NCBI RefSeq assembly: GCF_003334385.1 | Contig: NZ_QOWN01000021.1 | DNA from: Escherichia coli | GTDB taxonomy: Bacteria > Pseudomonadota > Gammaproteobacteria > Enterobacterales > Enterobacteriaceae | DNA length: 64,000 bases | Direction: 5' to 3' (one strand) | In this document: piece after piece, positions 20,443-23,108 of the stretch | Layout of the letters: each line of letters starts with the position of its first letter | Position numbering within the stretch: position 1 is the first letter of the stretch | The notes under the pieces: model-generated | What the model was told of the DNA's origin: nothing | The model's database searches: none | Seen by the model: only the letters and a program-made list of their open reading frames with translations | Translations under genes and position numbers: made by a program

Positions 20443-20559
20443 ACCCGACAGAATTAGATGAGATTGCAGGAAAACTCGGTTAACGGAGTGATCGAGTTAA
20501 CATTGTTAAGTTAAATATTGGTTTCAACTCCGATTTACATGGTTGCTGTGTTGTTAAAT

Positions 20560-20622
20560 TGTACAAAGATGTTATAGAAACAAAATGTAACATCTCTATG
20601 GACACGCACACGGATAACAACT
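20560..20622 (+). promoter_or_regulatory. cstA 5' leader with GGA motifs near the ribosome-binding region (putative CsrA sites)
   Basis: GGA-containing motifs (atggacacgcacacggataacaactATG) adjacent to start; cstA is a known CsrA and CRP target; exact sites not resolved. Confidence 0.35.
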
Positions 20623-22728
20623 ATGAACAAATCAGGGAAATACCTCGTCTGGACAGTGCTCTCTGTAATGGGAGCATTTGCTCTGGGATACATTGCTTTA
20701 AATCGTGGGGAACAGATCAACGCGCTGTGGATTGTGGTGGCGTCGGTCTGTATCTATCTGATCGCTTACCGTTTTTATGGGCTGTATATCGCCAAAAATG
20801 TGCTGGCGGTTGACCCGACGCGTATGACGCCAGCGGTGCGCCATAACGACGGGCTGGACTATGTGCCGACGGACAAGAAAGTGCTGTTCGGTCACCATTT
20901 TGCGGCCATTGCCGGAGCAGGTCCGCTGGTGGGGCCGGTACTGGCGGCGCAAATGGGCTACCTGCCGGGGATGATCTGGCTGCTCGCTGGGGTGGTTCTC
21001 GCCGGTGCGGTGCAGGATTTCATGGTGCTGTTTGTTTCTACGCGCCGTGACGGTCGCTCGCTGGGTGAGCTGGTCAAAGAAGAGATGGGGCCAACCGCCG
21101 GGGTGATTGCGCTGGTGGCCTGCTTTATGATCATGGTCATTATCCTTGCAGTGCTGGCGATGATCGTGGTGAAAGCCCTGACTCATAGCCCGTGGGGAAC
21201 ATATACCGTTGCGTTCACCATTCCGCTGGCGCTGTTTATGGGGATCTACCTGCGCTATCTGCGTCCGGGGCGTATTGGCGAAGTGTCGGTCATCGGTCTG
21301 GTATTCCTGATTTTCGCCATTATCTCTGGCGGCTGGGTGGCAGAAAGTCCGACCTGGGCACCGTACTTTGACTTTACCGGCGTGCAGTTGACCTGGATGC
21401 TGGTGGGTTACGGTTTTGTGGCGGCGGTGCTGCCGGTGTGGTTACTGCTGGCCCCGCGTGACTACCTCTCTACCTTCCTGAAAATCGGGACTATCGTCGG
21501 TCTGGCGGTAGGCATTTTGATTATGCGCCCGACGCTGACCATGCCTGCGCTGACCAAATTTGTCGATGGCACTGGCCCGGTATGGACCGGTAACCTGTTC
21601 CCGTTCCTGTTTATCACCATCGCCTGTGGCGCGGTGTCTGGCTTCCATGCGCTGATCTCTTCTGGGACCACGCCGAAGATGCTGGCGAACGAAGGGCAGG
21701 CGTGCTTTATCGGCTACGGTGGGATGTTAATGGAATCCTTCGTGGCGATTATGGCGCTGGTTTCCGCCTGTATAATCGATCCGGGCGTGTATTTTGCCAT
21801 GAACAGCCCGATGGCGGTGCTGGCTCCGGCAGGGACGGCGGATGTGGTCGCTTCTGCCGCGCAGGTGGTGAGTAGCTGGGGCTTTAGCATTACACCAGAT
21901 ACGCTAAACCAGATTGCCAGCGAAGTGGGTGAACAGTCGATCATTTCCCGTGCGGGCGGTGCGCCGACGCTGGCGGTGGGGATGGCCTACATTCTGCACG
22001 GCGCGCTGGGCGGCATGATGGATGTGGCGTTCTGGTATCACTTCGCCATTTTGTTTGAAGCCCTGTTTATTCTGACGGCGGTGGATGCAGGTACGCGTGC
22101 TGCGCGCTTTATGTTGCAGGATCTGCTGGGCGTGGTGTCTCCTGGCCTGAAGCGGACCGATTCACTGCCTGCTAACCTGCTGGCAACAGCGCTGTGCGTA
22201 CTGGCGTGGGGCTACTTCCTCCATCAGGGCGTGGTCGATCCGCTGGGCGGCATTAACACTCTGTGGCCGCTGTTTGGTATTGCCAACCAGATGCTGGCAG
22301 GGATGGCGCTGATGCTCTGTGCCGTGGTGTTGTTCAAGATGAAACGTCAACGTTACGCCTGGGTGGCGCTGGTACCAACGGCCTGGCTGCTGATTTGTAC
22401 CCTGACCGCAGGCTGGCAGAAAGCGTTTAGCCCGGATGCGAAAGTCGGCTTCCTGGCCATTGCTAATAAGTTCCAGGCAATGATCGACAGCGGCAATATT
22501 CCGTCGCAGTATACTGAGTCACAGCTGGCGCAACTGGTGTTCAACAACCGTCTGGATGCCGGGTTAACCATCTTCTTTATGGTGGTCGTGGTGGTTCTGG
22601 CACTGTTCTCGATTAAGACGGCACTTGCGGCATTGAAAGATCCGAAGCCAACGGCGAAAGAAACGCCGTATGAACCAATGCCGGAAAATGTCGAGGAGAT
22701 CGTGGCGCAGGCAAAAGGCGCACACTAA
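20623..22728 (+). CDS. cstA: Carbon starvation protein A, peptide/pyruvate transporter CstA
   Basis: 701-aa polytopic ORF MNKSGKYLVWTVLSVMGAFALGYIALNRGEQ... Confidence 0.95.
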   Translation: MNKSGKYLVWTVLSVMGAFALGYIALNRGEQINALWIVVASVCIYLIAYRFYGLYIAKNVLAVDPTRMTPAVRHNDGLDYVPTDKKVLFGHHFAAIAGAGPLVGPVLAAQMGYLPGMIWLLAGVVLAGAVQDFMVLFVSTRRDGRSLGELVKEEMGPTAGVIALVACFMIMVIILAVLAMIVVKALTHSPWGTYTVAFTIPLALFMGIYLRYLRPGRIGEVSVIGLVFLIFAIISGGWVAESPTWAPYFDFTGVQLTWMLVGYGFVAAVLPVWLLLAPRDYLSTFLKIGTIVGLAVGILIMRPTLTMPALTKFVDGTGPVWTGNLFPFLFITIACGAVSGFHALISSGTTPKMLANEGQACFIGYGGMLMESFVAIMALVSACIIDPGVYFAMNSPMAVLAPAGTADVVASAAQVVSSWGFSITPDTLNQIASEVGEQSIISRAGGAPTLAVGMAYILHGALGGMMDVAFWYHFAILFEALFILTAVDAGTRAARFMLQDLLGVVSPGLKRTDSLPANLLATALCVLAWGYFLHQGVVDPLGGINTLWPLFGIANQMLAGMALMLCAVVLFKMKRQRYAWVALVPTAWLLICTLTAGWQKAFSPDAKVGFLAIANKFQAMIDSGNIPSQYTESQLAQLVFNNRLDAGLTIFFMVVVVVLALFSIKTALAALKDPKPTAKETPYEPMPENVEEIVAQAKGAH

Positions 22729-22774
22729 AGTCAGAGTGAGGGGGGGATGTTGGCGAATGTTGGCTTAGTGCCCA

Positions 22775-22877
22775 GGGTTCCCTCTCACCCTAACCCTCTC
22801 CCCGGTGGGGCGAGGGGACTGACCGAGCGCGTTGATAGCATTTGTAGGCCGGATAAGGCGTTCACGCCGCATCCGGC
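22775..22877. repeat. boxC-like repeat plus REP unit between cstA and ybdD
   Basis: ccctctcaccctaaccctctccccggtggggcgaggggac (reverse complement of 15305 repeat) followed by tgtaggccggataaggcgttcacgccgcatccggcac (same REP as 908..943). Confidence 0.7.
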
Positions 22878-22910
22878 ACTCTTTCAGCAACATGGTTAGC
22901 GGAGGCCAAG

Positions 22911-23108
22911 ATGTTTGATTCACTGGCAAAAGCCGGAAAATATTTAGGTCAGGCGGCGAAGCTGATGATTGGTATGCCTGATTACGACAACTATGTCGAA
23001 CATATGCGGGTTAACCATCCCGATCAAACGCCGATGACCTACGAAGAGTTTTTCCGTGAGCGGCAGGACGCGCGCTACGGTGGAAAAGGCGGCGCGCGCT
23101 GCTGCTAA
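22911..23108 (+). CDS. ybdD: Small protein YbdD (DUF466), partner of CstA
   Basis: 65-aa [76 protein letters not shown] upstream. Confidence 0.85.

Follow-up and report, generated by a model that had tools for sequence, protein, structure and literature searches.

In Escherichia coli, cstA and the small gene ybdD form a known two-gene locus for constitutive pyruvate uptake, and the biology of the pair is already published and present in RefSeq product names. Both genes were found in a transposon sequencing (Tn-seq) screen for resistance to 3-fluoropyruvate (Hwang 2018; PMC5847655). ΔcstA and ΔybdD mutants share this resistance as well as a defect in pyruvate uptake, which stands at 13% of wild type in ΔcstA, 20% in ΔybdD and 25% in the double mutant, so the effects are not additive; it was concluded that the constitutive pyruvate transporter consists of CstA and YbdD, and a test of their interaction was called for (PMC5847655). 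In three other bacteria, genes for DUF466 proteins, the family of YbdD, show cofitness with cstA-like genes, which was accompanied by the proposal that pyruvate transport by CstA-like proteins needs a DUF466 accessory (Price 2016; bioRxiv 10.1101/072470). An AlphaFold-Multimer complex of CstA and YbdD lies above its authors' cutoff (Fesenko 2024). In Salmonella, cstA-ybdD has been deleted as a unit and regarded as one transporter, and the two genes are reported to be induced together inside macrophages. Here we describe this locus, and in particular the 182-bp spacer between its genes, in a 64,000-nt stretch of the E. coli contig NZ_QOWN01000021.1 (the window), to which all coordinates refer and onto which MG1655 positions were mapped.

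REP/BIME sequences are reported, by Newbury et al. in 1987 and Khemici and Carpousis in 2004, to stabilise mRNA between cistrons, with malE-malF as the paradigm. The cstA-ybdD locus resembles that arrangement in that a REP without a U-tract separates genes that presumably form an operon and have to supply their products in defined amounts, and in that an RNA 3' end is found near a hairpin. It differs in that the mapped 3' end is at a BoxC element and not at the REP, and in that the REP is absent from about one third of strains. The BoxC family of Enterobacteriaceae, also called PIT, TMECO or HPG1, has no established function. Like other members, the cstA-ybdD copy consists of a C-stem, loop, G-stem, TTA and G-stem, and is intergenic and strain-variable; unlike them, it is fused to a pre-existing hairpin arm and coincides with an RNA 3' end.

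Small genes that adjoin a monocarboxylate transporter gene and are needed for, or linked to, its activity are also known from yjcH-actP and mctB-mctC (PMC5847655). The small partners in those pairs are described as membrane proteins (PMC5847655), whereas YbdD is modelled as three short helices with a disordered tail, and no hydrophobic stretch of membrane-spanning length was seen in it, no transmembrane prediction having been run. The KCU-star/DUF466 selenoproteins of Campylobacterales (NF033934) are homologous to YbdD (E = 1.6e-19) and are likewise encoded next to transporter genes, but they end in Cys-Sec, whereas YbdD ends in Cys-Cys (codons TGC TGC TAA). YbdD is not itself a member of NF033934, scoring 70 bits against a cutoff of 85 and having no C-terminal TGA for selenocysteine.

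The cstA-ybdD pair and its conservation

The window is K-12-like. Between 20443 and 23600 it differs from MG1655 by two single-nucleotide polymorphisms, both within cstA, and the spacer is identical; the genes run entH, cstA, spacer, ybdD and then the convergent hcxA. CstA matched the NCBIfam equivalog PRK15015 (Pfam PF02554) over residues 1-701 of 701 with 1582.9 bits (cutoff 1188). YbdD carries the RefSeq name PF04328 family protein, and PF04328.19 was present in all homologues. Its C64 and C65 were invariant in the homologue alignment, giving the C-terminal Cys-Cys of the DUF466 family, and the literature assigns the same C-terminal Cys-Cys (or Cys-Sec) trait to the YbdD/YjiX family. An AlphaFold2 model of YbdD, of moderate confidence (mean pLDDT 68.8, pTM 0.46), shows three helices followed by a disordered C-terminal GGKGGARCC tail. 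Sequence searches of the PDB with CstA and YbdD returned no solved relative.

In order to assess co-occurrence, one genome per species was scanned with a DUF466 alignment, which yielded at least 588 confirmed loci, of which 80 were kept. In 70 of these 80 species loci, the gene immediately before the DUF466 gene, on the same strand, is a CstA gene; of the other ten, two run into a contig end, and eight are Gilliamella loci without CstA within 4 kb. The same order of CstA followed by DUF466 was seen in Sulfurospirillum, Crenobacter and a Bartonella-like genome, which were examined separately. Orthologous spacers are most often 55-63 nt long, the shortest measuring 1, 14 and 20 nt. One further CstA frame, from Edwardsiella ictaluri (L073, ~3900-4060), when extended from its tblastn match, runs 55 nt beyond the ybdD start and may reflect a frameshift or a pseudogene.

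E. coli also carries a second pair of this kind, btsT-yjiX. BtsT is 62% identical to CstA, and YjiX is 75% identical to YbdD and ends in RCC; the two genes have the same order on one strand and are separated by a GC-rich hairpin (z = -3.55). The btsT-yjiX spacer differs in being only 49 nt long and repeat-free, and its hairpin has a T-rich, terminator-like tail. In addition, a COG0523 GTPase gene, yjiA, follows yjiX, and the system is inducible through BtsS/BtsR, whereas cstA-ybdD is under constitutive or starvation control.

The identity of the two genes, their published genetic dependence and their conserved adjacency are established. An earlier note, made from the sequence of this stretch, had proposed that ybdD is a functional partner of cstA, had stated that similar transporter-DUF466 pairs exist elsewhere in E. 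coli and had asked for a co-occurrence analysis of CstA-family and DUF466 genes. The first proposal is borne out by the published genetics and by cofitness in three bacteria and was already in the literature, the second pair is btsT-yjiX, and the co-occurrence analysis gave the adjacency described above; the coordinates, the 65-aa ybdD and the 182-bp spacer given in the note were all correct. YbdD most likely acts by docking onto the CstA transporter. Two points argue for caution here, namely that Hwang et al. state that indirect effects are not excluded (PMC5847655), and that physical contact between CstA and YbdD is, in the literature examined, a prediction from modelling.

Variable repeats at a retained hairpin position

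The earlier note had described the spacer as made almost entirely of boxC-like and REP repeats. Both elements were confirmed, in one copy each, but the description overstates their extent, as they cover ~75-93 of the 182 nt, about half. The first 40 nt of the spacer hold the arm and loop of an older hairpin, and the last 30 nt hold the ribosome binding region of ybdD. An open reading frame of 50 codons starting with ATG within the spacer (22747-22899) was rejected as a gene, being encoded by BoxC and REP and missing where the repeats are missing.

The REP is a ~35-nt imperfect palindrome with GCCGGATG-type arms, extragenic and multicopy, as is typical of REP/PU-BIME sequences. Its 14-nt inverted repeat spans 22848-22877, and an identical 30-mer lies at 914-943 of the window (0 expected by chance). 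The REP RNA folds with -21.1 kcal/mol (z = -5.05) and matches the REP-derived Rfam family naRNA4 with 38.2 bits, under the gathering threshold; at permissive thresholds, no other known RNA family was found by Rfam in the spacer and leader. With the 182-bp spacer as query, a median of at least 39 places was matched per genome. The copy of the 30-mer lies in the fepA-entD spacer (809-982), the strongest-folding co-directional spacer in the window (z = -6.2).

BoxC/TMECO elements were recognized by a C-rich 9-nt stem, a 3-6 nt loop, a G-rich stem, a TTA/CCG loop and a further G-rich stem, and by their multicopy nature, all of which were found here. The G-rich strand of the spacer copy is the minus strand, which reads CCCCTCGCCCC-ACC-GGGGAGAGGG-TTA-GGGTGAGAGGG and fits the published TMECO type A consensus; the mRNA strand forms the hairpin CCCTCTCCCC-GGT-GGGGCGAGGGG. 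A 38-nt core (22780-22817) can be aligned at nearly every base with the two BoxC copies at ~15306-15410 (0 matches expected by chance), and the spacer copy has been catalogued, in a survey of G-quadruplexes and hairpins, as an HPG1 motif located between cstA and ybdD (PMC5100583). The two copies at 15306-15410 are inverted relative to each other, one being of TTA type and the other CCG-like, and lie 7.4 kb away in the regulatory region between the divergent fepB and entC.

Among 5426 complete genomes, 3699 carry a spacer with both BoxC and REP (181-182 bp, as in K-12 and O157), counted as K-12-type at 80% or more of the 182-bp spacer. A 112-bp spacer without either repeat, found in CFT073 and other B2 strains, occurs in 1189 of the 5426 (22%). 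The remainder, estimated at ~10%, includes spacers with BoxC only (153 bp in VCSW7 or 142 bp in LF82) and with REP only (127 bp in KOr021). The K-12-type count rests on the 182-bp query, as a BoxC-only megablast (2838 genomes) undercounts carriers because diverged copies, for example that of O157, lack a 28-nt exact word. An alignment of six spacer types confirms that BoxC is missing from the CFT073 and KOr021 types, and REP from LF82, VCSW7 and CFT073. In the six strains with different spacers, the YbdD protein is identical, with 0-1 silent differences, and a GGAG(G) precedes the ybdD ATG in all six spacer types. Since 22% of genomes have a repeat-free spacer and YbdD is identical among the strains compared, BoxC and REP are not needed for the existence or conservation of the pair and are dispensable; they are recent, strain-variable insertions. 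This pattern agrees with the general presence/absence variation of TMECO sites described by Holder et al.

What the repeats have inserted into, or replaced, can be read from the repeat-free alleles. The CFT073 spacer folds into two hairpins (z = -3.7), the first with a AGAGTGAGGGGG/CCCCTTACTCT stem and the second with a GCCCTC/GAGGGC stem ~20 nt before the ybdD start. Folds from CFT073, E. albertii and E. whittamii show the AGAGTGAGGGGG arm pairing with CCCCTTACTCT in repeat-free strains, whereas in the K-12 type BoxC begins in place of the 3' arm. By alignment, the REP of the K-12 type occupies the exact place of the ancestral CCCTC/GAGGG hairpin. At least one hairpin is retained in every E. 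coli spacer variant.

We extended the folding to 67 spacers, comprising 65 from other species and the K-12 and CFT073 alleles, with z calculated against dinucleotide shuffles. A hairpin of -15 kcal/mol or better was present in all 67, z was below -2 in 57 (median -3.4), and the median distance from the end of the hairpin to the ybdD ATG is 20 nt. At least five T residues in the 8 nt after the hairpin were found in only 6 of the 67, and the K-12 type has three T residues after its best hairpin. The hairpin sequences are unrelated between genera, being plain CCCTCTCC/GGAGAGGG stems, REP-like, or single or paired BoxC. Paired inverted BoxC-type elements, with z down to -12, occupy the spacer in Enterobacter, Pseudocitrobacter, Pluralibacter, Cedecea and related genera (loci in the table). 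The presence of paired BoxC in several genera indicates that the same site was occupied by the BoxC family repeatedly, in different lineages. Because all 67 spacers have a hairpin while the repeats vary, some hairpin probably matters at this position, but BoxC and REP themselves are dispensable.

A serious, if tentative, alternative is that the repeats are neutral passengers that were inserted into, or arose from, a permissive site containing a hairpin and leave cstA and ybdD expression measurably unchanged, the gene partnership being real and the repeats irrelevant to it. The variable presence of the repeats alongside an identical YbdD would fit such a reading, as would the instability of BoxC/TMECO sites between strains and earlier PIT/BoxC tests that gave no promoter or terminator activity (PMC4666352). 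Folding of the window also limits what can be said for the hairpin: z was below -2 in 6 of 12 other co-directional spacers, a small control, the whole K-12 spacer folds with only z = -1.5 to -1.75, and of its two repeats only REP is individually significant (BoxC alone, z = -0.6). Since structured spacers are this common, we do not claim the hairpin to be exceptional in itself; the notable point is that it persists, with no terminator tail, in spacers that are very short. Three observations run counter to neutrality: a strong hairpin is retained in every variant and species, REP lies exactly at the position of the ancestral CCCTC/GAGGG hairpin, and a published RNA 3' end has been located at the BoxC hairpin. 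The role in setting the expression ratio of the two genes that the earlier note had suggested for the repeats is a candidate one: the 3' end and the hairpin in every orthologous spacer speak for it, the repeat-free genomes with their identical YbdD and the earlier PIT/BoxC tests against it.

It is conceivable, but very unlikely, that the elements act at the DNA level instead, BoxC as a triplex or G-quadruplex element and REP as a gyrase/IHF-type site, with effects on supercoiling, replication or recombination. BoxC-type oligonucleotides do show triplex formation and G-quadruplex/hairpin switching in vitro (PMC5100583 and the TMECO literature), and sequence variability is raised around TMECO sites, in agreement with the spacer polymorphism. 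However, in vivo probing did not support a stable triplex, and a DNA-level role leaves both the plain hairpins of other genera and the RNA 3' end unexplained.

Probable transcription from the cstA leader through the spacer

In published Term-seq data (Adams et al. 2021; PMC7815308), an RNA 3' end maps within the spacer, ~9 nt past the BoxC hairpin and with 84 nt left to the ybdD ATG, and was detected only in LB at an optical density (OD600) of 2.0. The earlier note had pointed to Term-seq across the spacer as a check; a 3' end between the genes is indeed there, but with low reads and in one condition. A scan of the spacer found no intrinsic terminator, that is, no hairpin directly followed by a U-tract, and a scan 3' of ybdD found no terminator either. 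Between the ybdD stop codon and that of the convergent hcxA lie 9 nt (23109-23117), without a terminator. Rho-dependent termination is assigned to a plus-strand region at 632836(+), window ~23565, antisense to hcxA (PMC7815308, supplementary file 2). The transcript-end data thus fit transcription running through ybdD without a terminator behind it. Co-transcription of cstA and ybdD is the simplest reading, because orthologous spacers of 1, 14 and 20 nt leave no room for a promoter.

Several points weigh against co-transcription. The 3' end in the spacer, with its low read count in one condition, could be a processing or degradation product; no direct evidence for a transcript spanning cstA and ybdD was found in the published data examined; and in a 2016 table compiled from operon databases, cstA and ybdD each appear as an operon of one gene (PMC5100583). 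That listing and the Term-seq end between the genes would suit a ybdD that is an independent transcription unit with its own promoter, cstA transcripts ending in the spacer, and at 182 bp the K-12 spacer has room for such a promoter. We consider this unlikely, as a simple scan of 20300-23300 found no sigma-70-like promoter, the spacer lacks a canonical terminator tail, the hairpin and the ribosome binding site take up the orthologous spacers of 1-63 nt, and cstA and ybdD are reported to be co-induced in Salmonella in macrophages.

Transcripts also cross the spacer from the opposite side. A Rho-dependent stop on the minus strand at 631994(-), window 22723, lies beyond ybdD and the spacer, so that minus-strand transcripts reach the end of cstA (PMC7815308). 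Together with the 9-nt distance between the stop codons and the inclusion of ybdD-hcxA among convergent excludons (PMC12288877), this raises the possibility that the structured spacer mainly serves the antisense transcript of hcxA, as a long 3' untranslated region or through excludon interference. We regard this as highly improbable, since the hairpin is also found where a co-directional COG0523 gene, and not hcxA, follows the DUF466 gene, as well as in btsT-yjiX.

Upstream, the cstA leader carries GGA at 20469-71, 20485-87, 20600-02 (-23) and 20612-14 (-11). Four GGA in 180 nt are not unusual as a count; the -11 GGA, however, overlaps the Shine-Dalgarno position, and most of the 67 related loci conserve it. 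The earlier note had remarked on GGA motifs near the ribosome binding site; GGA is confirmed at -23 and -11, and the motifs fit the repression of cstA translation by CsrA (Dubey 2003, as cited in PMC7730263). PMC7730263 also cites control of cstA by CRP and states that cstA expression rises in late exponential/stationary phase. Term-seq 3' ends 20, 60 and 391 nt into cstA (window 20643, 20683 and 21014; MG1655 629914, 629954 and 630285; PMC7815308) are consistent with premature termination when CsrA blocks translation. A block, TAGAAACAAAATGTAACATC, at ~20575-20594, 30-50 nt upstream of the cstA ATG, is near-invariant across genera of Enterobacteriaceae (~60 species) between variable flanks. 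The simple sigma-70 scan did not flag it; it is probably a promoter, a transcription start or a regulator site.

Taken as a whole, the account that we favour, and consider probable, is that of the known CstA-YbdD pyruvate uptake locus, co-transcribed, with a hairpin position in the spacer that is filled by BoxC and REP and would tune the product ratio. Both genes would be transcribed together from the CRP-dependent cstA promoter with its CsrA-controlled leader, and translation of ybdD would start from a strong GGAGG site of its own. In all relatives examined the spacer holds a stable hairpin, usually without a U-tract, and in the K-12 type this position is occupied by the old arm fused to BoxC and then by REP. 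The hairpins may create or protect the cstA 3' end at 22827 while part of transcription continues into ybdD; by making that end and yet passing some transcription, they would tune, not enable, the relative amounts of CstA and YbdD, with BoxC and REP interchangeable with a plain hairpin. At the protein level, CstA is the pyruvate/H+ symporter, and the small, presumably soluble, three-helix YbdD with its flexible Cys-Cys tail is required for CstA-dependent uptake.

Table 1. Features of the cstA-ybdD region (window coordinates) and comparison loci (L numbers)
Feature	Position	Strand	Basis or remark
entH	stop codon ends 20442		
entH-cstA intergenic region, cstA promoter and leader	20443..20622	+	
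cstA, pyruvate/proton symporter, 701 aa	20623..22728	+	NCBIfam PRK15015, RefSeq annotation
cstA-ybdD spacer, 182 bp	22729-22910		
Older Escherichia hairpin, 5' arm and loop (AGAGTGAGGGGG...)	22733..22769	+	six-spacer alignment, folds
BoxC/PIT/TMECO type A	22778..22826	-	matches to window copies, published consensus
Published RNA 3' end, MG1655 632098+	22827..22827	+	Adams et al. 2021 Term-seq, PMC7815308 supplementary files 1, 3
REP (PU) palindrome	22844..22880	.	14-nt inverted repeat, identical 30-mer elsewhere, fold
ybdD Shine-Dalgarno GGAGG	22901..22905	+	5 nt before ATG
ybdD, 65 aa, DUF466 (PF04328)	22911..23108	+	ends Arg-Cys-Cys
Region 3' of ybdD, without terminator	23109..23565	+	
Paired-BoxC spacers	L015, L024, L034, L036, L042, L052, L060, L064		
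COG0523 gene after DUF466	L088 1316-4722; L089 1432-4760; L090/L091 1306-4952		
COG0523 gene after DUF466, further loci	L030, L041, L043, L053, L055, L063, L065, L068, L071-L073, L076, L079, L082, L087		
Gilliamella loci	L062 4001-5257; also L067, L069, L070, L075, L077, L078, L083		

A putative ancestral COG0523 module and the spacer alleles

In 27 of 84 loci, among them those of Aeromonas, Edwardsiella, Sulfurospirillum, Crenobacter and the Bartonella-like genome, the gene right after that for DUF466 encodes a COG0523 (CobW/YjiA-like) GTPase. The ancestral module therefore seems to have comprised CstA, DUF466 and COG0523, the arrangement still found in E. coli btsT-yjiX-yjiA, and the E. coli cstA-ybdD locus has lost the COG0523 GTPase gene. 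In the eight Gilliamella loci, the gene for a YbdD homologue (77-83% identical) is separated by 18 nt from that for a YjiA-like GTPase behind it, with no CstA gene within 4 kb on either side and with murA upstream on the opposite strand. With the GTPase present and no CstA nearby, these loci indicate that DUF466 can persist without an adjacent transporter.

A bolder reading, which we put forward as speculation and think improbable, is that YbdD is no mere passive subunit but the switch of this ancestral CstA/DUF466/COG0523-GTPase module: pyruvate uptake would be gated by a redox or metal site formed by its flexible C-terminal Cys-Cys (Cys-Sec in Campylobacterales) and maintained by the GTPase, and the hairpin between the genes, whether plain stem-loop, BoxC or REP, would set the amount of switch protein per transporter.

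Beyond the literature, the present analysis adds the polymorphism of the spacer and the conserved position of its hairpin, both of them small additions. The spacer alleles of 182, 153, 142, 127 and 112 bp constitute a natural allelic series in which the effects of REP and BoxC on operon expression could be compared. The questions of interest are why mobile repeats can replace a native hairpin harmlessly, whether the retained hairpin controls the stoichiometry of CstA and YbdD, and how a Cys-Cys-tailed protein of 65 residues enables a large symporter.

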